This document shows, piece by piece, positions 21,862 through 52,655 of a stretch of DNA of 64,000 nucleotides. The position numbers were made by a program, and so were the translations under genes. Origin of the DNA: a virus; the IMG/VR virus record IMGVR_UViG_3300032313_001582, positions 1-64,000 of that record; one strand, given 5' to 3'. The notes under the pieces were generated by a model. It saw only the letters and a list, made by a program, of their open reading frames with translations. It had not been told where the DNA came from and made no database searches. The stretch's first letter is position 1; each line of letters begins with the position of its first letter.

Positions 21862-21862
21862 C

Positions 21863-25432: not shown

Positions 25433-25445
25433 ATTTGAGATTCGG

Positions 25446-25467
25446 TTGTTATTTTTGAAAATAACAA
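25446..25467. promoter_or_regulatory. Perfect 10-bp inverted repeat operator containing a -7 box
   Basis: TTGTTATTTT-TG-AAAATAACAA, 4 nt before the ATG at 25472. Confidence 0.65.
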
Positions 25468-25471
25468 TATC

Positions 25472-25732: not shown

Positions 25733-25733
25733 A

Positions 25734-25934
25734 ATGGCAAACCTAATCGAATGGAAAGACTATGTGGTTATATACCATCTGGGCAAACATGACAGAGAAT
25801 CTTTTCGGTCATGGTTAAAAAACAACAACCGAACACAACCTGTCTGTTCTTGGGAAAACGAAAACGCGAATGATTGTGCTTATTTGCAAGACTATCGAGA
25901 TTTTTTGGCATGGAGAAGATTACAAACCCCTTAA
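25734..25934 (+). CDS. Hypothetical protein
   Basis: 66-aa ORF ending the operon. Confidence 0.55.
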   Translation: MANLIEWKDYVVIYHLGKHDRESFRSWLKNNNRTQPVCSWENENANDCAYLQDYRDFLAWRRLQTP

Positions 25935-25964
25935 AAAAGAAAGGGTGGAACATTCCGCCCCACC
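25933..25964 (-). terminator. Rho-independent terminator for the minus-strand small gene
   Basis: Minus strand GGTGGGGC-GGAAT-GTTCCACC followed by CTTTCTTTTTT. Confidence 0.7.
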
Positions 25965-26011
25965 GCTTACTTCAAGCCGAGATACCACAGAGTACCCGTA
26001 ACAAGTGCTAA

Positions 26012-26122
26012 TTACTTAGCGGTCTTGTACACGAGGTAAGCGATACCAATCAAAGCCAAGGTGTTGTGTACGTTAGTACCACCCAGCCAGTTGGGGCTTT
26101 TGATGTCGAAAAATCCAGTCAT
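26012..26122 (-). CDS. 36-aa single-TM microprotein (missing from the ORF track)
   Basis: MTGFFDIKSPNWLGGTNVHNTLALIGIAYLVYKTAK; C-ending codons, poly-A leader, own terminator. Confidence 0.75.
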   Translation of the reverse strand: MTGFFDIKSPNWLGGTNVHNTLALIGIAYLVYKTAK

Positions 26123-26332
26123 TTTTTTTTGCGTCAAATTGTTTAGTTTTGACATTACAAATATGGCGAATACGATAATCCAAAAACATAAATTTTCAGA
26201 TAATCAATTCCAGATTTGTAAACATGTTATTATTTGTTTTTAAATAGTTGAAAATCAATAGATTAGAAAATTATATTTGTCTATAAGTTTAATTAAAGTA
26301 AATTATCTTTGCTAAAATCACACTAAAATCCA

Positions 26333-29300
26333 ATGAAAAATATATTTAAAGGCGGTATGTCAGCCGATTTGAGTGCTTTTGATGTTGCTAAAAAATGGAA
26401 GATTAGCCCAATCGAGTTCATGCCTATTCTGGAAAAAGGGACGGAACATGAATTGGAACATACAGACGACAAAGACGTTGCCAGAAGAATTGCCCTTGAC
26501 CACATAGTTGAAAGGTTGGATTATTACGAGCAACTGGATAAGATTGAAATGATGAAAAAGGGTGCAATATTAGAGAAGCCCGAAATTTTCAATGACATTA
26601 CACTTTATTATGAAAAGAAAGGAAATTGGCTTTTCGCTAAAGGAAATTTCTATGCGTGGCTTTATGATGAGAAGGGTGCTGGTGCTAAATTGCAAAATCA
26701 GGAGTATGATTTTATTATGTTTCCACCGATGGGTAAGGGAAATCCATTTAGTGAAAAATATGTACCGCCATTAAGAATGATTTGGGATAAGAGTTATCAA
26801 AAGAAGTTTAAAGGTATTAATCACTTATTGGGCATCGTAAAAGGGTTTTATGATGAAGACAAAAATCAAATCATTATTGATATGATGACGACTAATCCAA
26901 AATTCAGAAGGCAAGGAATCAATGCTCATATAATTAAAAATTTAAGAGAGGAATTTGGAGTTAGTCAAGATGATGTAATTTTTGATAAACCAACAAAAGA
27001 GGGCAAGTTGTTTGAGAGTTCAAAAAAGTACGAAAATGGTGGTTTAATAGCACCGAATGGCGAGCAAAGTAATCTAACTCCAGAACTATATGAGTTGGTT
27101 CGAACTAAAGCGTTCAAAAATTGGTTTGGGGATTGGGAAAACGACCCAGAAAATGCCAGCAAGGTTATAGATAAAAATGGCGAACCAAAAATAGTATATC
27201 ATGGAACGAATAATGATTTTACCATTTTTGATAAAAATAAATTAGGCGAAAAAAACTTTTTCGCGGAATCAGCATCTTTAGGTTTCTTTTTTGCTGGTAA
27301 TATTAAAACTTCCGAAGCATACATCGGAATGAACTCGATGGATTGGGCAGGAGTTCAATTTGGTGCTTATGATGACATCATCAATAAATACAAACCAGAA
27401 CTGGATAGTATTAACAAAGATATTCAACAGATATATGAAAAATATCGAAAACAAGAAAAGGACAATATCAAAAAATTACAAGACGAAATAATTGAAAAGA
27501 TTCGTCAAACGCACAAGGATTTGTCCGAAAATGATTTGAAAGGTATTTTTATCAGAGATATGAATTGGGATGAAATTAACAAATTCGCTCAAGAGGAAAA
27601 CAACTTGAATGGAAATACTCAAAAATTGAAAGAGTTAAACGATAAAATTAAATCAGAGATAGAAGCAAAGTGGAAAGTTAAAACTAATGCAAATCCAAGA
27701 ATCATTTCATTGTTCTTGAATATTAGGAATCCATACATAATTGATTATGCTAATAATAAACAAACTGACCTTTCTCAAGATATAAAAACGGCTATAAAAA
27801 ATACAAATGATGGGGTCATATTCAATAATTTGAAAGATGGAGATGACGTAGACGATATTTTTGTTGTGTTTGATTCAGAGCAAATCAAACTTGCTGATGG
27901 AACAAACACAACTTTTGATATAAACAATCCAGACATTCGGTTTGCCAAGGGTGGCGACACAAACAGAAATTTCAATGATAAAGAATTATTGAAAAGATAC
28001 AATCAAGGAGAAAGCATTGGATTTACTGCAATTGCTCACTTAAAAGCACAAGGATTAATCGAGAGGTCAGATGGTACAAAGAGAAAAAGCATAAACAGTT
28101 TTAAGCAAGGTGGACTAATCGCACCTAATGGTGAACTTAGTAATCTTACGCCTGAACAATACAATTTGGTCAGGACTCCAGAATTTAAAGGTTGGTTTGG
28201 TTTTTGGGATTTATATCCTTCTGGTAAAGCAAATGACTATTATCAGCCAAATGTAAGAACAATCGCAAGAGAGTTGAAGCAAGAAAAATTCTCTGCCATC
28301 CAAGAAGTGGTTGATTTTTTGAGCAAGCAAGTCAATGAAGAAGATGTGTTAATACCCATGCCAAGTAGATATGGTTATGCTACGGACACTCAAAAATTGG
28401 TTGAAAAAATATCGGAGAGAACGGGTGCAAAAGTTTTCGATTGTTTGGTAGGGAAAAAAAGGCAGAGTATTTATGAACTGAAGAAAACAAATCAAGATGT
28501 ATCTGACTTTGAATTCGACTTCCAAATAAATTGTGAAATACCCAAAGCCAGAAATTATTTTATTGTAGATAATGTTATTGGAACTGGTATTACTATGAAA
28601 AATGCGTTAATGAATGTTATAGCAAGGGTAGGCAAGAATGTTAGCCCTTTAGTTTATGCCATAGACCTCAATAATATTTCCAAGGTTGTAGATGAAAATG
28701 ATGAGCCATTGGTAGTTCATCATGGTAGTATTATTGATACCAAATTTGACATATTTGATTACAAAAAAGCCGATTTAGGTTTTCATTTTGGTACGAAAGA
28801 ACAAGCAAAAAAAAGAGTGGAAAGCAAATCCGTTTTACCACCAAGAAAATCAATAGTCAATTCATTTTTCCTGAACATAAGAGTTTTGTTTGAAATGACT
28901 GATGTGGGCGAATGGCAGTACCCACAACGATACATTGATGAGTTGATGTCGGATAATATTATTGAAGAAAAAGTTGCGAAACAAAAAGGGTTTTTATCAT
29001 TGTATAGGCGAGAAGACAATGCCATCATAAGGGACTACTTAAAGTCAAAATATGGCAGTTTTGTGGGGTTTGTGTACAATAACAAATACGAGGGAAATGG
29101 TAAATCATTTATTGCGTTATCTCGAAATGAAATCAAGTTAGCCGATGGTAGTAATAAGACTTTTGATAGTGACAATCCTGATATTCGGTTTGACAAAGGT
29201 GGGGAAATACAAAATTTAATAGACCAAGGCGAAATGGAACTTAAAGTATATCCAACCACACCTGAACATGCAAATCTGTATGGGTTTAAATCCAAAAATC

Positions 29301-29962
29301 CTTTGTACATTCAAAGTATATTTATTTCCGAAAATCAAAGATTAAAAGGTATTGGTAAAAAGGTTTTGAAGTATCTGAATGATTTTGCTATAAAAAATGG
29401 ACACGATGTTATGTTTGGTCATATTACACAAAAAGCATCTTTTTCAAAAGATGATTCAAGACAATCAAATTTGGATGATGTTGCTATGATTAAAAATTGG
29501 CTACAAAGTAACGGATATGAAATATGTGAGGGCAACAATGATTTTTACAAGGTCGTGAACAATCCCGACATTCGGTTTGCCAAAGGTGGTAAAACCATAT
29601 CACAAACTCCTGCACCAGCATCAGACAGAGTTTCTGGAAGCAAGACAAATCCAAAAGGTAGTGCCAGTGATTCTTCGCTGGCAAGGTCAATAAAATTCAA
29701 TGATTCTTTGTTAAAAGCGATTGAAAACAAAGTCAAAGCACATAACGAAGAATATCCATCTAAAAAAGTTACAATACCAACGGCAAAAGCAGTGGTACGA
29801 AGAGGTATGGGGGCTTATAGCAAATCACATAGACCTTTCATTACTGGTGGAGCGCCAAACTCCAGACAAGCATGGGGGTTGGCAAGGTTAAATAAGTTTT
29901 TACTTAAAAAGCGTGGTGTAAAAGTTAAAAGTGCTTATGTACAAGATGATGACTTACTCTAA
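26333..29962 (+). CDS. Polyvalent/polyprotein A: DUF5661-like, GNAT, ART, ART with PRTase insert, GNAT, DUF5824-like modules separated by xxxGG linkers
   Basis: GTEHELEH...IALDH; KFRRQGI; YHGT..GFFFA..FLNIRNP..QIK; IVDNVIGTG; QRLKGIG; VRRGMGAY..SHRP..WGLARL. Confidence 0.8.
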   Translation: MKNIFKGGMSADLSAFDVAKKWKISPIEFMPILEKGTEHELEHTDDKDVARRIALDHIVERLDYYEQLDKIEMMKKGAILEKPEIFNDITLYYEKKGNWLFAKGNFYAWLYDEKGAGAKLQNQEYDFIMFPPMGKGNPFSEKYVPPLRMIWDKSYQKKFKGINHLLGIVKGFYDEDKNQIIIDMMTTNPKFRRQGINAHIIKNLREEFGVSQDDVIFDKPTKEGKLFESSKKYENGGLIAPNGEQSNLTPELYELVRTKAFKNWFGDWENDPENASKVIDKNGEPKIVYHGTNNDFTIFDKNKLGEKNFFAESASLGFFFAGNIKTSEAYIGMNSMDWAGVQFGAYDDIINKYKPELDSINKDIQQIYEKYRKQEKDNIKKLQDEIIEKIRQTHKDLSENDLKGIFIRDMNWDEINKFAQEENNLNGNTQKLKELNDKIKSEIEAKWKVKTNANPRIISLFLNIRNPYIIDYANNKQTDLSQDIKTAIKNTNDGVIFNNLKDGDDVDDIFVVFDSEQIKLADGTNTTFDINNPDIRFAKGGDTNRNFNDKELLKRYNQGESIGFTAIAHLKAQGLIERSDGTKRKSINSFKQGGLIAPNGELSNLTPEQYNLVRTPEFKGWFGFWDLYPSGKANDYYQPNVRTIARELKQEKFSAIQEVVDFLSKQVNEEDVLIPMPSRYGYATDTQKLVEKISERTGAKVFDCLVGKKRQSIYELKKTNQDVSDFEFDFQINCEIPKARNYFIVDNVIGTGITMKNALMNVIARVGKNVSPLVYAIDLNNISKVVDENDEPLVVHHGSIIDTKFDIFDYKKADLGFHFGTKEQAKKRVESKSVLPPRKSIVNSFFLNIRVLFEMTDVGEWQYPQRYIDELMSDNIIEEKVAKQKGFLSLYRREDNAIIRDYLKSKYGSFVGFVYNNKYEGNGKSFIALSRNEIKLADGSNKTFDSDNPDIRFDKGGEIQNLIDQGEMELKVYPTTPEHANLYGFKSKNPLYIQSIFISENQRLKGIGKKVLKYLNDFAIKNGHDVMFGHITQKASFSKDDSRQSNLDDVAMIKNWLQSNGYEICEGNNDFYKVVNNPDIRFAKGGKTISQTPAPASDRVSGSKTNPKGSASDSSLARSIKFNDSLLKAIENKVKAHNEEYPSKKVTIPTAKAVVRRGMGAYSKSHRPFITGGAPNSRQAWGLARLNKFLLKKRGVKVKSAYVQDDDLL

Positions 29963-30330
29963 TGACTAAAAAACAAAAACTGGGCGATTGCTACGAAGTT
30001 GCTGGAAGGATGGCAATTTTAGGGCTTTCAAAAGCACCGAACGGAGAAAAGTTCTTAGGGAATCCTATGGTAGTCCATGGTGAAGTCGAAGGTCAGGGTA
30101 AAATCAAAGGAATACGATATGGGCATGCATGGATTGAAGATGATGTTTATGTTTATGATTTTTCAAATGGTAGAAATTTGATGTTATTAAAAGAAGTTTA
30201 TTATTATTTAGGAAAAATCATCCAAGACAAGCCAAAACTCTATAAATATACGTTCATACAAGCCAGAGAAAAGATGATTGAAACTGGTGAATACGGTCCT
30301 TGGGATTTAATAACGGAATCAGGTCTTTAA
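29962..30330 (+). CDS. Minimal transglutaminase-like (Cys-His-Asp) peptidase
   Basis: GDCYE...GHAWIE...VYDFS; TAATG coupling to polyprotein A. Confidence 0.7.
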   Translation: MTKKQKLGDCYEVAGRMAILGLSKAPNGEKFLGNPMVVHGEVEGQGKIKGIRYGHAWIEDDVYVYDFSNGRNLMLLKEVYYYLGKIIQDKPKLYKYTFIQAREKMIETGEYGPWDLITESGL

Positions 30331-30356
30331 TTTATATCTTTGTTAAGTATTACATT

Positions 30357-32912
30357 ATGAATCAAGTATCTTTTACAAATACAGACGAAATAGGGACACC
30401 AAACAAGCCTTTAGACTCTTTTAAAGAAGGGGGCGAGATTAAACACATTTCGGGTGAAGCAGGTGGTTATTTGGTTGGTAAACGACACTCTGAGGGTGGA
30501 ATAAAAGCCATCAACAAAAGCACTGGTCAACCCTTGGAAATGGAGGGAGGTGAAGTCGTTATCACTCGTAATGCAGTGAGTGACACACAGAAATACGAAT
30601 TTGAAGGAGAGATGCTTACAAATCGCGAGATTTTAAGCAAGATTAATGAAGGAGGCGGTGGGGTGGCTTTTGCTGATGGTGGCGAAGTTTGTCATGTCTG
30701 TGATGCCGAGTATAATTACAAGGGTAAAAAGATGAAAGATTCAGAAATCTTCCGTGAAATGGCACTTGGTGGAGAGGTTGATGATATTTTAGATGCAGTG
30801 GATGATTTGACTTTTGAAGATTTGGATTCAAAATTTGATGACGAAACAGATGCGACTTTAGAAGCAATAAATACTATCGTTAATCAAAATAGTGGGAAAG
30901 ATTATTGTTTTAAAGGCAAAAAAAATACACCTTATGATGGCAAATATTTCTTTACCAAAGTAATAGATGCAGATATTGATGAGGCATATTTTGAGGAAGT
31001 TTTTGTAGAAAACCCAGAATATTTTACAATTAAAAGTAAAGACATAGTAGATAATTTTACTATCTTACCTAAAGGTTTTGAAATTTATGTGAACTGGTTT
31101 GAACACATCGCATATAAACAGATAGGCAATTTTCAAAGTTTTACTTATGGTAGCCCAACAGGATTAAACGCGACCTTCGATAACCCAAAAGGTTTATTTA
31201 ATGTTGATACCAATGAGTGTATTGTAATAACAGAGGAAAACAGGCAATTTTTAACTACAAATAATCCAGAAGTCAGTCCTGAAACTACAAATCAAGAAAT
31301 TTTGAACTATGTAGAATATTGGAAAACTTTGTTGCCAAGCACTTTTAATGCTTTTGATAAATTCGAGAATCGTTTTAAGGATGCAAAATTTTTCAGAGCC
31401 TACGCAGTAATTCATAGACAAAGTATTTCCAGTCCAATACAATTAAAGTATTTCATGGTTTATGGAAAAATGACAGTAAAAGGTAGTGCGTTGGTAAAGA
31501 TTTACACCTTTAATTTGAGAGATGATGAAAAAAGAGTATGGATGGTTGATACTAATACCCCTTTTGACGATTTCTTAAAAAGGTCTGACAATTTTTCTAA
31601 TTTATACAATTTAGATATTGTTATTGGATATAAAGATTGCTACAACAATATTAAACTTAGTTATATCCTAAATTCTGAAATACCCATCAAAATTAAAAAT
31701 TCAGACTTTAGTAATTCACAATCTTTTTTGAGTTATCTAAGTACAGGAGATAATGAATTTGCATATAAATTTGTGAATAAAGGAAGTGAAAAGACTATTG
31801 TTATTGATGGGTTAGAAGACCCCAAAATGGACGATTTAATTATCGATTTTAATCAAGTAAATACAGAGCAAGAAAGAAAATACATTGAGAGTAGGATACG
31901 AGAATTAGGATTAAAGATAAAATTGTTTCGTGCATCGATGAGTTTAGAAGAGTTTGGTGCAGTTCAAAGAGAGTTAAGAAAGTATGTAACATATCTTCAA
32001 GATTCATATTTAAGAGAAAAAAATTCAAATCCCCTTAGTTTTTTTGAACGTATAAAAGATGCTATCAAGGTTGATTTTGGAAATATTGATGCTAAGTATC
32101 CACTGACAAAAAATCTTTCTATCAATGGTTTATCCAGTCAACTAACCGAGCAAGAATGGTTGACAGTTCGAAGTGAAGATTTCAAAATTTGGTTTGGAGA
32201 TTGGGAAACTGCATACTACGACCAAAATTACTCTGGAGTTAGTGTAATCATTGACGATGCAACCAAAGAACCTATGCCCGTTTATCATGGTACAAATGTC
32301 AAATTTGTAGACTGGAAAACATACGAAAGTAATAACCTTCATTATTTCGCCAAGAAACGAGAAATGAGCGAATGGTTTGCCAAAGCATGGAAGATGGGTC
32401 GTGATGACAAGGCAGGTATAGAGAGTGCCCAAATTAAGCAAGGCAATCCATTTCAAGGAGAGTATTTGTATCGGGTATTTTTAAATATCAAGAACCCGAT
32501 TGATTTCAGTCCTTTTGGAGTCGATAAAGTAAAATTAGCCGATTTAGTTGCCTACCTAAAAATTAAGTATGGTGTGGGGGATTACGATTTATGGTCTAAC
32601 AACGATTACTTTAAGAAAGGAACTGTAACCATGGAATCCAAAGTATTTACATGGCAAATTATTCGTTTGTGGCAGAATTTTAATACCTACATAAGAGAAT
32701 TTACACCTTACGATGGGTTCATTTTTTATGAGTATATTCCAAGTAAAGCGAATTCTGGAAACATTGAAGATGCATCTTTGTCTTTCTGTGCTTTCAGAAC
32801 CGAGCAAATTAAGTTTCATGATGCCGTATCGTTTTCACCTGAAGTAAGTGATAGTCGATTTGCTTTGGGTGGTAAGGTAATTACTAAAAAGAAGAGAAGA
32901 AAAACCAAATAA
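30357..32912 (+). CDS. Polyvalent/polyprotein B with a C-terminal ART-like module
   Basis: Probable start MNQVSF after a TATCTTTG box; FKEGG, FADGG, MALGG and FALGG linkers; FKIWFGDW..YHGT..FLNIKNP..YDG..EQIK. Confidence 0.78.
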   Translation: MNQVSFTNTDEIGTPNKPLDSFKEGGEIKHISGEAGGYLVGKRHSEGGIKAINKSTGQPLEMEGGEVVITRNAVSDTQKYEFEGEMLTNREILSKINEGGGGVAFADGGEVCHVCDAEYNYKGKKMKDSEIFREMALGGEVDDILDAVDDLTFEDLDSKFDDETDATLEAINTIVNQNSGKDYCFKGKKNTPYDGKYFFTKVIDADIDEAYFEEVFVENPEYFTIKSKDIVDNFTILPKGFEIYVNWFEHIAYKQIGNFQSFTYGSPTGLNATFDNPKGLFNVDTNECIVITEENRQFLTTNNPEVSPETTNQEILNYVEYWKTLLPSTFNAFDKFENRFKDAKFFRAYAVIHRQSISSPIQLKYFMVYGKMTVKGSALVKIYTFNLRDDEKRVWMVDTNTPFDDFLKRSDNFSNLYNLDIVIGYKDCYNNIKLSYILNSEIPIKIKNSDFSNSQSFLSYLSTGDNEFAYKFVNKGSEKTIVIDGLEDPKMDDLIIDFNQVNTEQERKYIESRIRELGLKIKLFRASMSLEEFGAVQRELRKYVTYLQDSYLREKNSNPLSFFERIKDAIKVDFGNIDAKYPLTKNLSINGLSSQLTEQEWLTVRSEDFKIWFGDWETAYYDQNYSGVSVIIDDATKEPMPVYHGTNVKFVDWKTYESNNLHYFAKKREMSEWFAKAWKMGRDDKAGIESAQIKQGNPFQGEYLYRVFLNIKNPIDFSPFGVDKVKLADLVAYLKIKYGVGDYDLWSNNDYFKKGTVTMESKVFTWQIIRLWQNFNTYIREFTPYDGFIFYEYIPSKANSGNIEDASLSFCAFRTEQIKFHDAVSFSPEVSDSRFALGGKVITKKKRRKTK

Positions 32913-32928
32913 TTATATTTGCATATTA

Positions 32929-34560
32929 ATGAAACCACGACCAAAAAATAAAAGAAGTAAGATGAATTTTATCGGTGACTCTGTAAGTAAAGCGGAGTTC
33001 CAGAAAATCGCACAATCTCTTCAGGGAATGGAAGGGGACATTTTTGATAAAGTACAAGAATTTATCAAACAAACCAGTCCTGCAAAAGAATCGTTATTAG
33101 AAAAAATTCAATCAAAAATGGAAACTGCTGGTTTTGTACCAGCATTTTTAGATGGTAATTTTAAATCTGAGTATGTAGATTTTCAAGTTGAAATTCTAAA
33201 TCCAGCATCATCAGGAATCATCATCAGTGCTAAAAACTTAAAATACAATTTGAGTTTTGTAATTGGACTGACTGGAGATATTCAAATGGATAGTAGTAAT
33301 CAGGACAATCTAACTTTACGCAGTATTGATTGTACGATTGTTTATACGTTCCAGAGTGATAATGAAAATGTTAATGATTCTGAAGTACTTATTAATTTAA
33401 ATAAATTAGAATTATCAAGAGCAATGAATCAGTTAGAGTCGATTTATGAGAAGATGGCAAAATTGTATAATGATTCTTTGTTAAAAGAAATACAAAAAGA
33501 AATCAAAGAAGAGAAAGAGCAAGAAAAACAAAAAGATAAGCCGAAACAAGAAGAGCAAGAAGCAGATGACCAGCGTGATGAAGAGGAAGAAGATGGTAAT
33601 GACGAAGACGGAGAGGATGGCGAGGACGGGGAAGATGGAGAAGATGGTGATGGTGAAGACGGAGAAGATGGTGAAGACGGAGAAGATGGTGAGGGCGGAG
33701 AAGATGGTGAAGACGGGGAAGATGGAGAAGACGGAGAAGATGGTGAAGACGGGGAAGATGGAGAAGACGGAGAAGATGGTGAGGACGGAGAAGATGGTGA
33801 AGATGGCGATGGTGAAGATGGTGAAGATGGCGATGGTGAAGATGGAGAAGATGGAGATGGTGATGGCGAAGATGGAGAAGATGGTGATGGCGAAGACGGA
33901 GAAGATGGTGAAGACGGAGATGATGGAGATGGTGATGGCGAAGACGGAGAAGATGGTGAAGATGGCGATGGTGAAGATGGAGAAGATGGAGATGGTGATG
34001 GCGAAGACGGAGAAGATGGTGATGGCGAAGACGGAGAAGATGGTGATGGCGATGGCGATGGCGAAGATGGAGATGGGGATGGTGATGGTGATGACCTAAC
34101 CGATGAAGAAATTGACCGACTAATCAAAAGTCTAACTCAAAGCGAAGGTCAAAGTCAAACTGAAGGCGGAGATTTTGAAGACTTTTTGGACAAGGTGAAC
34201 AAAGGTGAACTTGAAAACGATTTTACTGAAAATTACAACGACCCAAGTTTGACAAGCCCACAGACAGAAACCGATGATGAAGAGAATCAAGAAGATGAAG
34301 ATGATTCTGGTGATGAAATGCCTAAAGAAATTACTGGTACACTACAAGCCCTTGCCATGTTCAGTAAATTTGATAGTCAAGAAAATTTCTTAGAATCGCT
34401 TCAAGGAAGTAAAACAACATTGAATGCATTAATAAATGGATTAACAAACGAAGAGGTCAGAGCGATTAAAACGCTTTTAGGTAAGCCAGAAATGACTAAA
34501 TTCGACTTAAAATTTCAAGCAAATCAAGATTTTGATATTATAACAACCAATCAGCCATGA
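32929..34560 (+). CDS. Protein with a long acidic (GED)n tract
   Basis: 543-aa ORF after a TATATTTG box; ATGA overlap with the AAA gene. Confidence 0.8.
   Translation: MKPRPKNKRSKMNFIGDSVSKAEFQKIAQSLQGMEGDIFDKVQEFIKQTSPAKESLLEKIQSKMETAGFVPAFLDGNFKSEYVDFQVEILNPASSGIIISAKNLKYNLSFVIGLTGDIQMDSSNQDNLTLRSIDCTIVYTFQSDNENVNDSEVLINLNKLELSRAMNQLESIYEKMAKLYNDSLLKEIQKEIKEEKEQEKQKDKPKQEEQEADDQRDEEEEDGNDEDGEDGEDGEDGEDGDGEDGEDGEDGEDGEGGEDGEDGEDGEDGEDGEDGEDGEDGEDGEDGEDGEDGDGEDGEDGDGEDGEDGDGDGEDGEDGDGEDGEDGEDGDDGDGDGEDGEDGEDGDGEDGEDGDGDGEDGEDGDGEDGEDGDGDGDGEDGDGDGDGDDLTDEEIDRLIKSLTQSEGQSQTEGGDFEDFLDKVNKGELENDFTENYNDPSLTSPQTETDDEENQEDEDDSGDEMPKEITGTLQALAMFSKFDSQENFLESLQGSKTTLNALINGLTNEEVRAIKTLLGKPEMTKFDLKFQANQDFDIITTNQP
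33601..34095 (+). repeat. Imperfect 9-bp tandem repeat GGN-GAR-GAY encoding (Gly-Glu-Asp)n with GD interruptions
   Basis: About 165 codons almost exclusively G, E or D. Confidence 0.95.
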
Positions 34561-37420: not shown

Positions 37421-37422
37421 AC

Positions 37423-39807: not shown

Positions 39808-39846
39808 TTAAAAAAGAAATATATTAACTTCGCAAAAACTAACACA

Positions 39847-43668: not shown

Positions 43669-46571
43669 TGAACAAGAATATTAGATTTCTAAGCAAAGAC
43701 CAAGCGTATCGTTATATGCCAAATACATCTATTGAAAATGATGTGTTAGATAAAGTTCGTTACACCATTGATAATCTCAAGTTTGCTGGTAATTTTTATT
43801 CAAGTTCATGGCAAGGTGGTGGAGATGGATATTTGTACGATTTGGATACTTATGACGAATATTTGGTTGGTGGCAGAAAACTGAAAGAAGGAGAAAAAAT
43901 ATATCGGTATTTCACCAGAATGAGTGCCATCAGTGGTTCAACCCCATTTATTAAGATTAACATTGATAAGGGATTGTTGTATTTCTTAAAGCCAGATGAT
44001 GAAGGATTGGATTTAATTGAATTCGAAACCAAAGGAATCCCTGTTAGATATTTGAATTTGATTGAAAGTGACAATGAATATTTGGCAGAGAGTGGTATTA
44101 CTGATGATGAGGGTAATTTAATTGACATCAAAGTTGGGGATGAGGTTGTTCAATATAAAAAAAGGTACACTCATGAAGAAAAAGAAGCAGTAGGAGGTAA
44201 GGGTCGTGTAATTTTAATAAATGGTGCTATGGCAAAAGTGTCTTATGGCAATGATTATGAACAATGGCTGGGATTAAATGAACTGAAAAAAATGGCAGAG
44301 GGTGGTGAATTAAAAAGTTACCTCAGTTCTCGTTCTGACATGTTTGATGAGAACGCTAAAACTATTGATAAAAAAGACATTCTTGAGGTAATTAGTTTGA
44401 GCAAAAACTCGGATAAAAAATATTGGGTCAAAGACTTAAATACAAAATATTCCTATTACATCTACAAAGGAAATTTAAGAGCGAATGATGGAACTGGAGG
44501 GATATTTAGTACCACTATACTTAATCCAATGTGGTACTACCTCAAAGATGAACATAGATTTAAGGTACAAGAAGAAGCATTATACGATTGGGAAAAAGAA
44601 AAAGACCCAAGTATTGTTAAAGTTGGATGGGATGCCATAAAGGAAAAATTTGACAATATTTTTTACATGGAGGAAGATGGCGAAGATGAAATATTTGCCA
44701 ACGAAGTAAAATTGGAGGAATCAACATACAATTGGGACGGAAGACCAAGCCCATACAAAAAAAGAGTAAGTTTTTCGGATGCCAAATCTATGTTTCTGCA
44801 AAGTCTTACTGATGAAGAAAAAGCGATGATTGACCTTGAATACGATTATCAAGATGTTCATGAACTTTTTGGTTTAATGTCTGAAAAAAGATTCATCGTT
44901 AAGCGGAAAAAAGATGAATCAAAAGACTTTTTAGATGAATTGGAAAATATGAATTTCGAAGATAGCAGTTTGTATTTGAAAAATGGAGGCAAATTAGCAT
45001 GGCAAAGCGTAGAGGTTGGTGACAATGCTTTGGTAAAATCAGAAAATAAAATGGGTGTTGTTGTCGTGACCTATGGTCGCAGATTCCATTTGCGTTTTCC
45101 AGATGGTAGTGAAAAGACATATTCGGCTGAGGATTTAGAATTTTTACCAAGTGATTCTTACGCGAATGGTGGTAAGATAGACGATTTGGTAGGGCGTACT
45201 ATCACCATGTACGATATGGGCGTTCCTGAGCCAAAATATTATACTATTTCAAGAGTAGAGATGTCGCCTCCATATTTTTCTCGTAAAACGCTTCGTGTCT
45301 ACAACAAATACGGAAATTCCGAACTTGTAGATGTCATAGAAGATGAGCAAATTGACAAATTCTTAAATGGTGAACAAGTAGAACTCAGAACAAGTGGGGG
45401 AGATTATTATGCAATTAAATTAATGAAAGAAATGAAAAAAGGTGGAACTTTAGAAGGCGGTGTTAAAAAGAACATGATTTTCGATGAAAACGGGGAAAGA
45501 AGAACAGACCCAGAAGCGTTGGCTTACATTGAAAACACTGTTGAAATGTTGCCTCAAACCAAATTCGAGCATTCCAATGCCGAAGGCAAATACACGGCAA
45601 AAAGGAAAAAATTGCACGAAGAAATCATTTCTCATTTTAGGGAGGATAAACCTTGTGTGAACAAAAGACCAGCCGTAGCAATTTTGACTGGTGGAGCGCC
45701 AGCATCTGGTAAAACTACATTCATCAAGAAATATGTGGATTTAGACCCAGATAAAGTGTACCATGTGGATGCAGATGAAGTCCGTGCAATGCTTCCAGAA
45801 TACAAAGGATGGAATGCAACTCAGACCCATTTGGAAACTGCTGATATTGTTAATCGTTTGATTGACGAAATTGGTAATCCGTGTGAGCATGATTTGATTT
45901 ACGATGGCACTATGAACAAAGCAACGAAGTATGAAAAAATCGTTGACAAACTTCATAAACTTGGCTACAAAGTGTTCGTGGTTTACATCTCTATTCCAGA
46001 GCAGGTCAGCAAAGAGCGTGTGATTTCTCGTTACAAAAAAGCAGGTCGTTATGTACCCATGAAAGTAATCGAAGAGGTTTACGATAATGGTTTGACTGCT
46101 TTTGAAAAAGTCGCTCGTGAAATGGCTGATGGCTATGTTCGTATTGATGGCATGACTGGAGAAATCATCGAAAAAGGTGGTATGGAAATGCCTAAAAACA
46201 TTGAATACGCTGAAGGTGGAGAAGTAGAAAAATCATATTTGAAAAATGCCGATTCGTTGGTTCGTTCAGCAGAAAGGTATGCTCAAGCAACTTACGAAAA
46301 ACCAGTAAGTAAAGGAAAGGGTATGGCTCGTGCTTCCAAGCAGAATGGACAAATGAAATACACCGAAGTTATCGTATTTTTCCAAGATGGTGAGAAGATT
46401 ACTTTCGATGAAAGCGAGTTCCCTAAATTTTTTATGAAAGATGGCGGTGAACTTGGTCAAGATTATTACGATGGATTCCAAATGCAGGTGATAACCAAAA
46501 AAGGCAATCCAGATAAAGAAGTACAAAAACAAGACACAACATTCAAATACCGTAAAGGTGGAAAATTATAA
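43668..46571 (+). CDS. Polyprotein D including a zeta-toxin-like P-loop kinase module
   Basis: Seven to eight linkers; GGAPASGKT, VDADEVR, YDGTM, GRYVP. Confidence 0.85.
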   Translation: MNKNIRFLSKDQAYRYMPNTSIENDVLDKVRYTIDNLKFAGNFYSSSWQGGGDGYLYDLDTYDEYLVGGRKLKEGEKIYRYFTRMSAISGSTPFIKINIDKGLLYFLKPDDEGLDLIEFETKGIPVRYLNLIESDNEYLAESGITDDEGNLIDIKVGDEVVQYKKRYTHEEKEAVGGKGRVILINGAMAKVSYGNDYEQWLGLNELKKMAEGGELKSYLSSRSDMFDENAKTIDKKDILEVISLSKNSDKKYWVKDLNTKYSYYIYKGNLRANDGTGGIFSTTILNPMWYYLKDEHRFKVQEEALYDWEKEKDPSIVKVGWDAIKEKFDNIFYMEEDGEDEIFANEVKLEESTYNWDGRPSPYKKRVSFSDAKSMFLQSLTDEEKAMIDLEYDYQDVHELFGLMSEKRFIVKRKKDESKDFLDELENMNFEDSSLYLKNGGKLAWQSVEVGDNALVKSENKMGVVVVTYGRRFHLRFPDGSEKTYSAEDLEFLPSDSYANGGKIDDLVGRTITMYDMGVPEPKYYTISRVEMSPPYFSRKTLRVYNKYGNSELVDVIEDEQIDKFLNGEQVELRTSGGDYYAIKLMKEMKKGGTLEGGVKKNMIFDENGERRTDPEALAYIENTVEMLPQTKFEHSNAEGKYTAKRKKLHEEIISHFREDKPCVNKRPAVAILTGGAPASGKTTFIKKYVDLDPDKVYHVDADEVRAMLPEYKGWNATQTHLETADIVNRLIDEIGNPCEHDLIYDGTMNKATKYEKIVDKLHKLGYKVFVVYISIPEQVSKERVISRYKKAGRYVPMKVIEEVYDNGLTAFEKVAREMADGYVRIDGMTGEIIEKGGMEMPKNIEYAEGGEVEKSYLKNADSLVRSAERYAQATYEKPVSKGKGMARASKQNGQMKYTEVIVFFQDGEKITFDESEFPKFFMKDGGELGQDYYDGFQMQVITKKGNPDKEVQKQDTTFKYRKGGKL

Positions 46572-46574
46572 ATC

Positions 46575-47162
46575 ATGGAAAAAGATAAAGTTGAAATAAA
46601 GAACTTTCACAAAAACATCATGGGAACACTCTCATTCGATATGAAATTGTCCAAGATGAGAAAGCCACAGGAGTTCATAGTTTATCCTGTATCGTCTGCT
46701 GATGCCGATAAACCCATAACCATCCAGAGCGATACGAGAATTGGTGTTATTGATTTGGAAACAGGTAAAGGATTGATGAGTCAGTCGCACACTGGAGGTG
46801 CTTATTTTGTGCATTTGAGCGTTGACGAAAAGATTCGATTCAAATTGGATGATACCCAGTTAGAATTGTTCCGTGAAAAGATGCGTAGTACCTCTAAAAC
46901 TGGAGATAGTGTTATCAAAATTGATAATGAAGGTGCAAGCAAATTTAAAAAAGGTGGTAGCCTTGAAGATTATACCATCGATATGGTGAAAAGCGATTTA
47001 AAAGTGATGGAAGAATATGCATCAAAAATCGCATCTTTGTTGGACAAATTAGGCTATGTAGAACCTTGGATTGCAAGCAAGATTTACATCGCTGGTGAAA
47101 ATATAGAAAACATTAAACATTATCTTGAATACGAAGTTGAAGGCTTCCCTACAAAAAAATAA
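46575..47162 (+). CDS. Two-module protein with one FKKGG linker
   Basis: Beta-rich N-terminal module, FKKGG, helical C-terminal module (EPWIASKI). Confidence 0.75.
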   Translation: MEKDKVEIKNFHKNIMGTLSFDMKLSKMRKPQEFIVYPVSSADADKPITIQSDTRIGVIDLETGKGLMSQSHTGGAYFVHLSVDEKIRFKLDDTQLELFREKMRSTSKTGDSVIKIDNEGASKFKKGGSLEDYTIDMVKSDLKVMEEYASKIASLLDKLGYVEPWIASKIYIAGENIENIKHYLEYEVEGFPTKK

Positions 47163-47168
47163 AATCTG

Positions 47169-50100
47169 ATGAATTACGATAACTATTACAAAAATGGCGG
47201 TATGACTAAAGAAGAGTCTATTTCTGCTATCGCTCTTAGAATTGGTGCAAGAAAAGAAGCAGTCGCCAAATTCGTAGAAGAAAACGACATTGATACTAAA
47301 AAAATGAACTCTGACTTGAAGTCGGGAAAAGTTTATTTCATGGACATTATCACTGCCATCGTTGGAAAACCGAACAATAAATACCAAAAGGAAATCATCA
47401 AAAAATATGGTTCTAAAATGGCTATGGGTGGTAAAACTCAGGGTTATGATGACCGAGAAGATGAGAGAGTAGGCATGGACTATGGTAAAATTGCAGGTAA
47501 AGATTTTGTAGGTAGTCATAGTCGTATGGAGCATTCTCGTAGAGATGATGCCAGATTTGAAGAAAGAATGGCAAAGGGTGGAGAACTTACCGATGATGAT
47601 TTCATAGTTGGTGATTTTTATTCGAACTCTTCTGAAGGTGGCAAATTTAAATTTGTAGGAAAAGATGAATCAGGTCGGTTGCGGTTTGAAGATTCAAAAG
47701 GAATTAATAGAATTTTTAGTCCAAAAAGAATGAATAAATATGCTGATGGTGGCATGATGGCAAGAGGTGGATATGTGAGCAAAGGAGAGTTGGTTTGGAA
47801 AAAATTAAGGAAAAGTGAAAGGATGAAGTTTTTACACGAAAATTTCACACCACAAATAACACCAAGAAGTCAAGAAACATTAGTGGATAAAGATTATAAT
47901 TTTCTTCCCAAAAATGTCAAAATTGTTATGGAAAGTAAATACGCGAATGTAGAAGACTATGCTGATGGTGGCATGATGGCAGAGGGAGGTGAAGTGTATT
48001 ATGTACGCGATTTTTACCCAAACTATGATGAGGACAAAATTGTATCAATTTTGAAGTCTAATGGTCTTAGAAAAGTTCGGAAAGCCAAGTTGTATGGAAT
48101 GTCAAATCTACCACAAGTAGCAGTTTTTGAGGGTGATAAAAACAAAGCCCAAGAGATTTTGGAAAAAGAATTTCCAGATAACTACATTTCGATTTATGAA
48201 AAAGATTGGGGTAGAAAAATGGCTGATGGTGGCGAAACTGAGCGTGATACAAATGGTATGTTGTACGCTCTTCAGGAGCATGTTTCAAGCGGTGAAATCG
48301 CCAGTAAGACAAATGCTTCAAAATATTCAGACATCGATGAAATCAGAAGCAAAGCGATTCAGTACTACATGGAAAATGGTGATAAACCATATTCGTATGC
48401 AGAATTGGAATCTGTGTTGAAGAAATTTGACCATACCAAATATGCTAAAGGTGGTCGTGTTTACAAAGATTGGACTGGAAGCAATTCAAAAGAAAATTGG
48501 GGTCAAGAAAATTTATATCCAAAATATAACAACTCTTTAGATTTAATTGCTGATGTATCGGATTATTATAAAGAACTTTCAAAGGATGTTAGTCAAAATT
48601 TTTCTGACGAACAGAAAAACGATATGATTGAAGTTCTAAAAACTGGCAAAAAAACATTTAATGATGGTGCAACATTGAAATTTGCTAATGGTGGTCGCAT
48701 TCAAGAAGAAGATGATTATTTATTAGGATATGAACCTTATTTTGAAAAAAATGTGCCCATCGCATCTATTGATAGAGAGAATAAAATAGTAAGACCAACA
48801 TCGGGGTATTTTCCTAAGCATCCAATGTCAAAAAAAGCAATCAACTGGGCAAAAAAACACGGTTATGATTACATCGCTGACGGCAAAAAATATGATGATG
48901 GAGGCGAAACCGAGCGTAAAGCAGAGGCACTCAAGACCGCAGTTGAAATTGCAACCATGGCTTACAATAATGGAGTTCGAGCGTCTGACATGTCGTTCGA
49001 AGATTTTTCAGATAGAATTTTTGGTTTGTCAAATACCAGTTATCCCATCGTTGATTTGAGATTGGCGTATCAGTCGATGAAGAATGCAAACTACGCTGAA
49101 GGTGGATATATTGATGAAGATGGACTTCATGAATTGGCACGATTGGTCATGGATAGTATTGACTATACCGTGAACATCTCTTTAGATGAATTCATCAAAG
49201 AAGTTAGCATGACTGGTTATCAAAGAGAACTTTGTATGTATGTCTTAAACATGTTCAATGAATATGAAAATCCAAAACCTCGTCTTGGTGAAGTTGAAGA
49301 GTTTCGTCTTGTAAGAGAAGGTATGTTTGAGTATATAAAAAATTATTATCTCAATGAATATCCAACTGATGATTTGGGTGCAGATATAAATCCAAAAGCA
49401 GATTTTGATGGTTTGCTTATGGTTTTAAATGAAGGAGATGATGTTTACGAATATCTTGGTGTTACCGATAGTTTGGTGAGAGAAAGGGTTTTTGAAAAAT
49501 TGGCTAATATCATGGGTGTAGAGTACAATGTAATTTATGATATGTGGTTGTCATCCGATGATAAATTTAAGCAAGGTGGCATAATGGCTAATGGAGGGAA
49601 GATTGCCAAGGATGACGTAAAGGATAAAATTTACTTCATGTACCAAAAATTTAAACTTGGAATGGGAGATGTTTTTGCAACAATTTTGCCTGAAAATCCA
49701 AATGGAGGAAAAATAAAATATGGTCTTCATATTCGTGACGTAGTTAATAACCCTTCAAGAACTCAAAAATATAATACACAAATTTTTGAATTGGATGCAC
49801 CTTATTATCCAGACTCAAATGGAGGTATAAGATATGCTCAGAATCATCCTTATGATGTATATAAATTCAAAGCGATAGGTATGGGTAATCACCTTTTGGT
49901 TGTGGAATTACCAAGCAAAGGTCGCAGAGGATTGAGCGATTTAATTTATGATATTCTCTATAAACAAAAGAATTATGATATTAATAATATCAATAATCAA
50001 GATAAAAATATTTTGCCGAAAGACTATCCTAATTTTTTCTTGAATGACTTATTTGTTTTCAAGGGAGATATGTTCAATTTGATGCGATTAATGGATAGAA

Positions 50101-52655
50101 TAGAATCGGAATTTAAGTATAAAGGAAATAAATTGTATAAAGATAAAACCCCTTATAAAATGACGATTATCTGGAACATTCCAGAATTAAGGGATTATAA
50201 TAACAAAATAACAACTCCTGCCACATACATACCAATAGTAGAAATCGAAAATGAATTAGAAGGCAATTCAAAAAAATTCGAAGTTGGTGGTGCTATCGAA
50301 AACCAATACGAAGGTAGAACCCCCGAAGACATTTGGGATAGCCTTGACCGTGACCAGAGATACCACTTCATTGACGACCATGCACTTCAAATAGAAATGT
50401 TGCAAGATAAAAATTATGATTTTAATTCGGACAAATTTCCAGAGTCAATAAGCAATGATTTAGTCAAGAAATCCATGCGCTCTGACTGGAAAGACTTGGA
50501 TGAAACGATACAAAATAGATTTGCAAATCATGTTAGAACGGGTGAATACGCCAAGGGTGGTGAAATTCGTTCTCAAAAAGAATTTAATAATCTTGTAGAG
50601 GAAAAACGAAGGCTTGTAAAAAATCTTTCTCCAAAAGAAGTTGCAGAAATGTGGAATCGAAATACTATTGGTAGCCCAAATAGAATGACCGAAGAAGAGG
50701 CTAAAATGTCCAAGGCAAAAATTTATTTGTCAGATTTATTAGTCGAAAAAGAATTAACAGAAGCAGAATATAATCAATATTTTGCAAAAGGTGGCATGAT
50801 GGCTGATGGTGGTGCTATCGAAAACCAATATGAAGGTAGAACTGCTAAGGACATTTGGGAATCTTGGAATCATGAGCAAAAAATTCATTTTTTTATAGAC
50901 CATAAAGAACATACATACTATAACATGGGGGGTAAAGAATTTGTCGTATCTAAAAATGATAGAGAAAAGTATGTAGGTATGAGTTATGATGATTTACCAA
51001 AAACTGTAAGACTTATGATTTCCGACCATGTTGAAGAAGGTCAATACGCAAATGGTGGTGAAATTGGTTCTATGATAACCTATAAAGGCAGAAAAACAAA
51101 AATTTTAGATGCTTACAAGGATAAAGCATTTGGTGATAGGATGGTTTACAAGGTAAATACACCTTTGTATGAAAATATAAAAAATTCTCCCATGACTAAA
51201 ACTATAATTACGCAAGATGAAAATGGTGAATATAGAAAAATAGAAAGAAGTGATTATGTTGATAAAATGGCTAAAGGTGGTGAAATATCTGAACAAAATA
51301 AAATTAACAAAAAGGTTCTTGCATTAGTTCAGAAAGCAAATATTGATTCAAAATTAGAATTCGGTCAACTTGTTGTGTCTGCTCTCACTGATGCTAATGC
51401 TCATTCTGAAGTTAGGAAGTTCATTTCTATCATTGAGAAAAAACCAGAATGGGCAGAAAAGCCAAAAGAGATTGACATGAAATTGCCTCGTGAAGAATAT
51501 GAAAAACAAAGGGCAAAAACAGTTTATAGTTCTAAATATTATGATGCAAATGAAGAAATAAATGATTTGGGAATAAAAATCGCCAACATGTTTGGATGGG
51601 ATTTCGAAGGCATTTTGGATTCATTAATTTTTGCTTCAAAAATGTCAGGTCGTAATGATGTTGCAGAAGTTTTAGAAAAACTGAACACTGATGATGATAA
51701 ACAAGATGCAACAAAAAACAAATGGGATTACACCGATGTGGATGACATTGAATATGTTGTTGTTAAAGACAAAAGCGGAAAAGAACTCAGGTTTGCTGGA
51801 AAGCACGTTTTAAGTGGTGTTCATGACCTTCTGGAAAAAGGCGGTAAACTATCTGAAAAAGGTAAATACTATTCAAAAGACAATGTAGTGTCAGTAGTAG
51901 TTGGAGGCAAAAACATCATCGATAAAAACACTGTTTCTGGTGTTTGGATTATGAAAGATGCAAAACCCATCGCGGATGATGTTGCCGACATGAAAATTGG
52001 AAAAACTACCATTAGAAAAGGTTTTAATGGATGGGTTGGTAAAACCATGGTTGACAACTTCAAAGGTTTTGATTGGGATATAACCACAATTAAAACCTCA
52101 AGGGGCGATTTGGTGACTACTGCTCAAGGTGGTAAATCCCAAGATAATAATGGATATAAGTCATTCTCTTTTATGTTGTTCCAAGACCCTAACATTCGTT
52201 TGAAAGTTTCCCGTCCAGCCCGTGTGACTGATAAAGTTGTGTCTGCACAACATGAAGAGGCTTTGAAAGAATTCAAAGAAAGACAGGAAGAAATTGCCGA
52301 AATGGTAGACCAGATTCAAGCCAAGAAAAAAATGGCTGATGGCGGTGCAATCGGATTTGATGCATTGGCAAAAAAGGTTGCCAAAAACTATGAGGGCGAT
52401 AAAGTAAAGAAGCAATACCAAGATGAGTATGGTAAAACATACGACAAGAAAGAAGCCGAAGAAGTTGGTAAAAAAGTAGCCGCGAAAGTGTATCGTCAGC
52501 AAAAAGCAAAAGGCAAAATGGCAAAAGGTGGTGAAACATCCAATTACCGAACTAATAGTAAATTAGCAAGAATTTCCGCAAAAGCCAAAGAGATTCGTAA
52601 GGCAAACGAACCATGGAGAGATGCTTTCAAAAGAGCGAAAGCAATGATTGGCTAA
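47169..52655 (+). CDS. Polyprotein E (about 23 xxxGG linkers)
   Basis: 1828 aa; internally duplicated modules; basic C-terminal module. Confidence 0.88.
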   Translation: MNYDNYYKNGGMTKEESISAIALRIGARKEAVAKFVEENDIDTKKMNSDLKSGKVYFMDIITAIVGKPNNKYQKEIIKKYGSKMAMGGKTQGYDDREDERVGMDYGKIAGKDFVGSHSRMEHSRRDDARFEERMAKGGELTDDDFIVGDFYSNSSEGGKFKFVGKDESGRLRFEDSKGINRIFSPKRMNKYADGGMMARGGYVSKGELVWKKLRKSERMKFLHENFTPQITPRSQETLVDKDYNFLPKNVKIVMESKYANVEDYADGGMMAEGGEVYYVRDFYPNYDEDKIVSILKSNGLRKVRKAKLYGMSNLPQVAVFEGDKNKAQEILEKEFPDNYISIYEKDWGRKMADGGETERDTNGMLYALQEHVSSGEIASKTNASKYSDIDEIRSKAIQYYMENGDKPYSYAELESVLKKFDHTKYAKGGRVYKDWTGSNSKENWGQENLYPKYNNSLDLIADVSDYYKELSKDVSQNFSDEQKNDMIEVLKTGKKTFNDGATLKFANGGRIQEEDDYLLGYEPYFEKNVPIASIDRENKIVRPTSGYFPKHPMSKKAINWAKKHGYDYIADGKKYDDGGETERKAEALKTAVEIATMAYNNGVRASDMSFEDFSDRIFGLSNTSYPIVDLRLAYQSMKNANYAEGGYIDEDGLHELARLVMDSIDYTVNISLDEFIKEVSMTGYQRELCMYVLNMFNEYENPKPRLGEVEEFRLVREGMFEYIKNYYLNEYPTDDLGADINPKADFDGLLMVLNEGDDVYEYLGVTDSLVRERVFEKLANIMGVEYNVIYDMWLSSDDKFKQGGIMANGGKIAKDDVKDKIYFMYQKFKLGMGDVFATILPENPNGGKIKYGLHIRDVVNNPSRTQKYNTQIFELDAPYYPDSNGGIRYAQNHPYDVYKFKAIGMGNHLLVVELPSKGRRGLSDLIYDILYKQKNYDINNINNQDKNILPKDYPNFFLNDLFVFKGDMFNLMRLMDRIESEFKYKGNKLYKDKTPYKMTIIWNIPELRDYNNKITTPATYIPIVEIENELEGNSKKFEVGGAIENQYEGRTPEDIWDSLDRDQRYHFIDDHALQIEMLQDKNYDFNSDKFPESISNDLVKKSMRSDWKDLDETIQNRFANHVRTGEYAKGGEIRSQKEFNNLVEEKRRLVKNLSPKEVAEMWNRNTIGSPNRMTEEEAKMSKAKIYLSDLLVEKELTEAEYNQYFAKGGMMADGGAIENQYEGRTAKDIWESWNHEQKIHFFIDHKEHTYYNMGGKEFVVSKNDREKYVGMSYDDLPKTVRLMISDHVEEGQYANGGEIGSMITYKGRKTKILDAYKDKAFGDRMVYKVNTPLYENIKNSPMTKTIITQDENGEYRKIERSDYVDKMAKGGEISEQNKINKKVLALVQKANIDSKLEFGQLVVSALTDANAHSEVRKFISIIEKKPEWAEKPKEIDMKLPREEYEKQRAKTVYSSKYYDANEEINDLGIKIANMFGWDFEGILDSLIFASKMSGRNDVAEVLEKLNTDDDKQDATKNKWDYTDVDDIEYVVVKDKSGKELRFAGKHVLSGVHDLLEKGGKLSEKGKYYSKDNVVSVVVGGKNIIDKNTVSGVWIMKDAKPIADDVADMKIGKTTIRKGFNGWVGKTMVDNFKGFDWDITTIKTSRGDLVTTAQGGKSQDNNGYKSFSFMLFQDPNIRLKVSRPARVTDKVVSAQHEEALKEFKERQEEIAEMVDQIQAKKKMADGGAIGFDALAKKVAKNYEGDKVKKQYQDEYGKTYDKKEAEEVGKKVAAKVYRQQKAKGKMAKGGETSNYRTNSKLARISAKAKEIRKANEPWRDAFKRAKAMIG

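Follow-up and report, generated by a model that had tools for sequence, protein, structure and literature searches.

Why are six proteins of an uncultured virus punctuated, dozens of times, by almost the same short di-glycine peptide, and what does this peptide do? The question is raised by the IMG/VR virus record IMGVR_UViG_3300032313_001582, a 79.7-kb genome (here G000) with an estimated completeness of 94%, the first 64,000 nucleotides (nt) of which form the window discussed below. An initial annotation of this window had proposed that [FYML]xxGG peptides mark the module borders of virion-cargo polyproteins that are cut into small effectors. Such proteins recall the polyvalent proteins, a class of giant proteins in which unrelated effector domains are combined and which phages and conjugative elements encode (Iyer, Burroughs, Anand, de Souza, Aravind 2017; PMC5512222). 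We compared the genome with four relatives, G001 (72.6 kb), G003 (84.4 kb), G004 (74.7 kb) and the partial G005 (42 kb), and found motif-rich polyproteins in all four; the contigs of the relatives are all metagenomic. The six proteins, together 6342 amino acids (aa), are encoded by the following open reading frames (ORFs):

26333-29962, plus strand: polyvalent protein A, 1209 aa, with five junction motifs and an in-domain FITGG at residue 1169
30300-32912, plus strand: polyvalent protein B, 870 aa counted from the TTG at 30300, with an ART-PolyVal (ADP-ribosyltransferase) domain at residues 657-838 and 4 motifs
39847-43668, plus strand: polyprotein D, 1273 aa, with 14 motifs including 4 doublets, without Pfam match
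43668-46571, plus strand: polyprotein E, 967 aa, with 8 motifs, ending in YRKGG-KL and the stop codon
46575-47162, plus strand: protein F, 195 aa, two modules and one motif
47169-52655, plus strand: polyprotein G, 1828 aa, with 24 motifs, one of them in-domain

In the six proteins the loose pattern [FYML]xxGG was found 57 times (A 6, B 4, D 14, E 8, F 1 and G 24), close to the approximately 54 counted by hand in the initial annotation. Residue shuffles gave 6.7±2.6 matches, with a maximum of 15 in 1000 shuffles. Narrower forms stood out further: [FYM]AxGG was observed 37 times where 0.24 were expected, and the 7-mer [FYML][AE]xGGx[VLIMT] 41 times where 0.23 were expected. In the other 80 ORFs of the 79.7-kb genome (19,059 aa) the loose motif was at chance level, with 26 matches against 18.8±4.2 expected, and both strict forms were completely absent, structural proteins included. 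The earlier claim that the motif is enriched over shuffles and over other ORFs is thus borne out. At least two of the 57 loose matches are chance matches inside domains, namely FITGG at A 1169, within a weak DUF5824 match, and YNMGG at G 1251, inside a paralogue of the module G 1042-1131.

Furthermore, we searched for relatives of the six proteins with a profile of the N-terminal module of D, which is one of the two features of D shown here:

40264-40548, plus strand: basic N-terminal module, D 140-234, ending in the first junction LEKGG; the constant head of the family
41419-41451, plus strand: example of a doublet, YAKGG-Y-MADGG, D 525-535

At E<=1e-3 the profile matched 297 proteins, each representing a 50% identity cluster and reaching up to 2311 aa. 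The match almost always fell within residues ~80-240, and all those looked up were metagenomic. The Pfam content of family members is diverse (RelA_SpoT, LPD11, Zeta_toxin and DUF5661). The best 150 of the 297 proteins contain 1383 loose motifs in 120,625 aa, or 11.5 per 1000. A logo built from 1364 sites in these 150 representative proteins reads F/Y/M/L, A/E, K/D/N, G, G, any residue, V/L/I/M/T, which gives the junction consensus [FYML]-[AE]-[KDN]-G-G-x-[VLIMT]. Position +1 is Ala in 59% and Glu in 20% of the sites (1.86 bits), and position +6 is one of V/L/I/M/T in 88% (1.53 bits), and neither preference was imposed by the search. In the same 150 proteins, 69% of all GG dipeptides lie within the motif. 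Since +1 and +6 carry information beyond the search pattern, the site appears to be read by another protein rather than to be a generic flexible linker. Doublets of the kind seen in D are found across the family, with 94 cases at a spacing of exactly 6, and in 89 of these 94 the second motif begins with Met. These doublets are overlapping hexads, in which Met is permitted both as +6 of one motif and as first residue of the next. An internal translation start at the Met of MADGG was considered and rejected, because Met begins just about a quarter to 40% of the sites. A literature search for the motif strings gave nothing relevant.

The motif is restricted to this large uncultured virus clade and is not general to polyvalent proteins. 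The ART module of A is common to giant proteins of crAss-like, Bacteroides and Pseudoalteromonas phages, in which we found 0, 8 and 3 motif matches in 2237, 3634 and 3243 aa, respectively, all at chance level. The ending D-I-R-[FY] is present in the Bacteroides and Pseudoalteromonas phage proteins, where GG does not follow. As the homologous ART modules of tailed phages end without GG, the motif is not intrinsic to the domains.

Next we examined where the motif falls relative to recognisable domains, for which three features serve as examples:

27170-27916, plus strand: ART-PolyVal domain, A 280-528, within the module 238-541 (PF18760, E=1.8e-19)
27941-27955, plus strand: example of a junction, FAKGG, A 537-541, after NPDIRF
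45636-46130, plus strand: zeta-toxin-like kinase domain, E 657-821 (PF06414, E=1.8e-27)

In A the order is DUF5661, GNAT-like, ART-PolyVal, a short module, ART-PolyVal, GNAT-like and DUF5824-like, with junctions at nt 27029, 27941, 28100, 29189 and 29576. The initial annotation had these positions exactly and the order essentially right. A Pfam scan of the whole protein returned DUF5661, ART-PolyVal (PF18760, E=6e-23) and GNAT, and in the module-wise scan GNAT, PRTase and DUF5824 are just weak, sub-threshold matches. Both ART-PolyVal matches in A cover the full profile (1-140/140) and end 9 residues upstream of the next motif, and three modules of A close with the same ending ..NPDIRF-x-K-GG. 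In B, ART-PolyVal (PF18760) was matched with E=3e-8, and the last motif lies 12 aa upstream of the stop codon. The zeta-toxin domain is bracketed by MKKGG at E 589 (nt 45432-45446) and YAEGG at E 847 (nt 46206-46220), as had been claimed. None of the seven Pfam matches checked (DUF5661, ART-PolyVal in A, ART-PolyVal in B, three GNAT-family matches in A and Zeta_toxin in E) spans a motif. Pfam gave no match in D, F or G.

Two modules of A were also noted for their own sake. The DUF5661 module (A 17-72; 26381-26548) has an HExxH of its own (HELEH) but too few residues for a standard zincin fold. In relatives it is found again as the first module, ~70 aa long and motif-bounded, and it also has a match in a Synechococcus phage protein. 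The DUF5824-like module (A 1087-1209; 29591-29959) gave a tblastn match of 36% identity to Roseobacter phage genes, in the C-terminal part of genes annotated as 'major capsid protein' in several 30-kb phages. The start of B is ambiguous: the TTG at 30300 overlaps a 122-aa ORF, and the ATG at 30357, where the initial annotation begins the protein, is likelier.

The position of the motif at borders was also evident from alignments. In BLAST alignments between proteins of the relatives, 88 of 235 internal ends of high-scoring segment pairs lay <=5 aa from a motif, compared to 22±4.4 at random. Module G 1042-1131 has 32 homologues among the 150 family proteins, and all 32 have a motif <=8 aa from both ends; for two further modules, 19 of 20 and 11 of 12 homologues were motif-bounded at both ends. 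Modules cut at the motif, with a median length of ~70 aa, recur in the relatives' proteins with equal lengths in different genes and orders, and the first module of F is an internal, motif-bounded module in another family member. The claim that the motif falls at domain edges is therefore supported both by the Pfam matches and by the alignment ends that pile up on it. The initial annotation had also suggested a check of the borders on structure models. The AlphaFold2 model of G 1000-1828 is poor, with a mean predicted local distance difference test score (pLDDT) of 46 and only the last ~100 residues usable, and for that reason the structure test covers two junctions only. The C-terminal helices of G have a pLDDT of 70-84, and the junctions 1722-1726 and 1784-1788 between them are predicted as coil with a pLDDT below 50, which agrees with a border position. 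In the same model, poor overall, the in-domain YNMGG was placed in a predicted hairpin.

Modules are gained and lost at the motif. The orthologue of A in G005 has 250 aa, and A is the same protein with insertions at aa 79-541 and 595-1086, each of ~470 aa and each beginning and ending exactly on junctions. Of the three modules that the orthologues have in common, two are 82-96% identical and the short middle one is 54% identical, and nucleotide homology between G000 and G005 ends at the motif codons. The DUF5824-like module ends its protein in G000, lies between motifs inside a protein in G001, and forms a 128-aa gene by itself in G003 and G004, with its start codon at the would-be junction position.

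A comparable rearrangement was seen for D to G, the last of which ends in the constant tail of the family:

52347-52652, plus strand: C-terminal modules, G 1727-1828; conserved

G001, G003 and G004 have a single polyprotein with the N-terminal module of D and the C-terminal module of G, and D, E, F and G thus represent a split, expanded polyprotein. E, F and G share one reading frame and are separated from one another by single TAA stops plus 1-2 codons, the stop codon of D overlaps the start codon of E (ATGA), and G opens with a junction at residues 7-11. As a whole, 43668-52655 looks as if a single earlier ORF had been split into genes. Read-through of the stop codons that would link E, F and G was set aside, because the stops are ordinary TAA, the commonest stop of the genome. 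The single polyproteins of G003 (24395-27679), G004 (18156-21923) and G001 (30485-33487) have an extra conserved module of ~90 aa before the C-terminal helix, which G000 and G005 lack. A stand-alone homologue of module G 1042-1126 was not found in the database, in a search limited by its word index. Sequence searches of the PDB with D, G and the N-terminal module D 140-234 returned nothing useful, and tblastn of G against GenBank phages gave no match.

At the DNA level, the junction Ala is encoded by GCT in 20 of 32 sites (background 0.24) and the first junction Gly by GGT in 28 of 32 sites (background 0.49), while the second Gly and the variable third residue show no codon bias. A common 15-nt junction is ATG GCT GAT GGT GGT. 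A similar bias was observed in G005 and in two further relatives (G008 and G009). This bias fits a microhomology that aids cassette exchange, although runs of GGAGG or GGGGG may be disfavoured, which could account for part of the preference for GGT at the first Gly.

Which protein could read the junction? It is held across hundreds of proteins, absent from homologues elsewhere, and placed between modules that are also found as separate genes, which together argue for a protein acting in trans. Two genes were considered as a source of a protease:

64876-65664: 262-aa protein with an invariant HExxH, 876 bases beyond the window end
29962-30330, plus strand: 122-aa ORF between A and B, without Pfam match, present in G000 and G005 only

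The 122-aa ORF, which had been put forward earlier, was rejected as a core protease because it is missing from three motif-bearing relatives (G001, G003 and G004). The likeness to adenovirus and African swine fever virus (ASFV) that had been drawn also fails on the side of the enzyme: profile searches of the genome (94% complete) with Peptidase_C5, C48 and C39 found nothing at E<=10, where very remote homologues could escape. A search of the genome with the profile of the prohead protease S78 gave no match either. No peptidase domain was found in the six proteins themselves, where the only HExxH is that of the 65-aa DUF5661.

In the 262-aa protein, an alignment of 35 homologues shows no variation at H189, E190 and H193 of the HExxH or at the acidic residues E203, E205 and D207 shortly after it. 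At E<=0.001 the protein has 1270 homologues, none of which is named or has a precomputed Pfam domain, and tblastn against GenBank phages found no match. Its sole Pfam match is weak (PF18894 PhageMetallopep, E=0.12), and Foldseek and sequence searches gave nothing clear. In the AlphaFold2 model (pLDDT 90) a beta-sandwich at the N terminus precedes a helical catalytic half. Among solved structures, the closest to the catalytic half is BepA (Z 8.8 over 118 residues, root mean square deviation 4.2), followed by 3c37, Ste24, ZMPSTE24 and abylysin with Z 6.1-6.7, all of the M48/minigluzincin type. The gene is present in every sufficiently long relative with motif-rich ORFs. Its product is 66-71% identical in G001, G003 and G004 and 39-52% identical in the further relatives G008, G009 and G010, whose ORFs are still motif-rich. 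In G007, where the copy is 33% identical, the motif-rich ORFs are weaker and the motif is slightly looser, for example KYADGG. A complex prediction of the 262-aa protein with Zn and G 1699-1828 gave a score of 0.00 and is not evidence either way. With its predicted M48-like fold, the 262-aa protein is the best protease candidate.

These data can be combined in the following way. The six proteins are effector polyproteins of the polyvalent kind, encoded by an uncultured virus whose genome is linear and carries inverted terminal repeats. Each strings together autonomous modules, some of them recognisable as enzymes (ADP-ribosyltransferase, zeta-type kinase and acetyltransferase). The most economical reader of the junction would be a protease that releases the modules. 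We give even odds to the proposal that the junction is the recognition site of a virus-encoded protease cutting the arrays into small proteins, with the 262-aa M48-like protein as candidate. We infer that cleavage by this enzyme would be accompanied by packaging of the arrays into the virion and delivery of the products. As a second effect, the near-constant junction DNA would offer an in-frame microhomology through which cassettes could be inserted, lost or swapped. A broader version is that the whole clade stores its anti-host arsenal as in-frame cassettes whose junction does double duty, telling a dedicated viral zinc protease where to cut so that dozens of small effectors are set free, and serving as a frame-keeping microhomology for cassettes, resembling an integron inside ORFs; this we put forward tentatively, as a possibility that is probably too strong.

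Several observations weigh against a protease reading the junction, or against the 262-aa protein being this protease. The profile PF01435 (Peptidase_M48) found no match in the genome, the putative metallopeptidase has no sequence match to any Pfam peptidase above threshold, and its structural Z scores are middling. To our knowledge, Gly-Gly specificity is not known for M48 enzymes. The clade as a whole has the 262-aa protein among its core genes, and its presence alongside the motif is thus necessary for the link but has no discriminating power. A fusion of the metallopeptidase to a polyprotein was not found in a search limited by its word index, which is weak evidence. No structural protein of the virus has the strict motif, unlike in the maturation systems of adenovirus, ASFV and phiKZ. 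That E and F are without the conserved head and tail modules fits poorly with packaging before cutting. Finally, the spacing of a hydrophobic residue, GG and a second hydrophobic residue could equally be a small structural turn.

In the likeliest alternative, the junction is an uncut structural hinge and the proteins remain intact multi-domain chains, like beads on a string, perhaps for threading through a narrow conduit. The conserved hydrophobic residues at 0 and +6 on both sides of GG suit a tight turn, the doublets overlap as hexads that share the residue at +6, and coil is predicted at the junctions. For many tailed-phage polyvalent proteins, action or transfer as a long chain has moreover been proposed (PMC5512222). 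However, ordinary linkers are not fixed to one 7-residue sequence over hundreds of proteins in viruses whose core genes have diverged to 33% identity, and the homologous multi-domain proteins of tailed phages manage without the motif. The same modules also exist as stand-alone genes and the chain is freely divided into separate genes, and junctions occur 2-12 aa from protein ends, where a hinge is not required. We therefore regard a hinge as unlikely.

Conservation by position implies a reader protein also if the junction is a repeated loading or binding tag, the alternative named in the initial annotation. Cutting would then be optional, and the tag would be read, so that the cargo is loaded, unfolded or anchored, by a virion component or by a MoxR-like ATPase encoded nearby:

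34557-35924, plus strand: MoxR-like AAA+ ATPase, with AAA_5 and bpMoxR matches and 39-88% identity in G001, G003, G004 and G005

Together with a gene for a 498-aa partner (weak DUF7192 match), this gene forms the pair 34557-37420, which lies between the A/B and D-G blocks in every relative and may be part of a cargo-handling system. Such a tag would explain why E and F keep motifs though they lack the head and tail modules and why motifs are retained at the extreme N and C termini, and the conservation of the ATPase pair also speaks for it. On the other hand, one tag per covalent chain would suffice where we see one per module, and no candidate receptor has been identified. Known capsid-targeting signals, such as the T4 capsid-targeting sequence, occur once, at a terminus, and are cleaved off by a protease. 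A loading tag thus seems distinctly improbable. Selection mainly on the DNA, with the near-constant 15-nt junction as in-frame microhomology and the peptide as a tolerated by-product, is suggested by the biased Ala and first Gly codons, the halt of G000/G005 homology at the motif codons and the changing orders of modules, but is very unlikely given that the second Gly and the third residue are unbiased, that the GGT bias may have another cause and that the peptide, including the aliphatic residue at +6, is kept across lineages whose synonymous sites should be saturated. A role at the DNA level is compatible with cutting by a protease as a secondary effect.

If the junctions are cut by a protease, hundreds of small effector modules that evolve fast can be delimited exactly from the motif. 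Most of these modules match no known family, and they could be cloned directly for screens of anti-defence or host-takeover functions. Cutting would also mean a new pair of protease and substrate, linked by a simple code, and would explain how such an arsenal is reshuffled so quickly. Even if the junctions remain uncut, a junction peptide kept in hundreds of proteins implies an unknown reader protein.

Further features of the genome and its relatives were noted. The relatives measure 70-102 kb, and three of them (G003, G006 and G007) have inverted terminal repeats, of ~133 bp in G003. Bins of metagenome-assembled genomes that contain such contigs are mostly Bacteroidota, with hints of Sediminibacterium, Lishizhenia and Saprospiraceae. 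Among the products of the virus lineage are numerous small membrane proteins, glycosyltransferases and methyltransferases as well as a PAP2 phosphatase, and an FtsK/HerA-like ATPase is found at 58908-59720. No terminase, portal or HK97 capsid protein was present among the Pfam and PHROG matches listed (best 25 families per scan). A 230-aa 'capsid candidate' at 60043-60735 has language-model features closest to Hcp-like clusters of the type VI secretion system (score 0.87, a lead only), a likeness that, if real, points to a tube protein and not to a capsid protein. A collagen-like gene with Gly-X-Y repeats is located at 76422-79724. As the contig ends within this gene, the assembly of G000 probably broke there. 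Its homologue in G003 (51961-67977) is a 5338-aa ORF, with a repeat that leaves several frames open on either strand.

How does the junction relate to known systems? As in the M48/minigluzincin proteins BepA, HtpX, Ste24 and abylysin, the 262-aa candidate has an invariant HExxH followed by acidic residues, and its predicted catalytic half superposes best on this group; unlike them, it is without a Peptidase_M48 profile match and carries an extra N-terminal beta-sandwich. The adenovirus protease cuts virion precursors at (M/I/L)XGG-X, and the ASFV polyproteins pp220 and pp62 are cut at GG-X by pS273R to give several virion components; both enzymes are cysteine proteases of clan CE. Common to these viruses and the family described here are a hydrophobic residue a few positions before Gly-Gly and a short consensus at borders, which here are those of evolutionary modules. 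In contrast, the hydrophobic residue lies one position farther from GG in our consensus and is followed by Ala, an aliphatic residue at +6 is conserved as well, no Peptidase_C5 or C48 match exists in this genome, and the structural proteins are without the motif. In the giant phage phiKZ, gp175 processes head and inner-body proteins at S/A/G-X-E, and in T4, gp21 processes internal proteins. The substrates of these phage proteases include proteins that are packaged but not structural and that carry a short consensus, in some cases at several sites, as would be the case here; the consensus and the protease families differ, no S78 match was found, and our proteins have far more sites, placed at the borders of exchangeable modules.

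The closest comparison is with the polyvalent proteins. Like these, the six proteins are virus-encoded and carry several unrelated effector domains per polypeptide (DUF5661, two ART-PolyVal and GNAT-like domains in A, Zeta_toxin in E), and they include signature families of the class, with PF18760 in A and B and LPD11, RelA_SpoT and Zeta_toxin in family members. Domains described for the class are ART-PolyVal, zeta toxin, GNAT, RelA/SpoT and LPD, in rapidly shuffled genes near late genes (PMC5512222). The initial annotation had seen no precedent at this scale in a bacterial virus. In part this does not hold, as polyvalent proteins had already been predicted to be packaged and to accompany the DNA on delivery, with a zincin-like peptidase dividing them into units (PMC5512222). 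The junction code itself is absent from that study, in which the words 'linker' and 'glycine' never occur (PMC5512222). Two differences set the present family apart, since one 7-residue code stands at every module border where the tested tailed-phage members have no such motif, and since the candidate peptidase is a separate gene rather than an MPTase domain within the polyprotein. The six proteins are thus polyvalent proteins, with a regular junction code that appears to be undescribed for this class.

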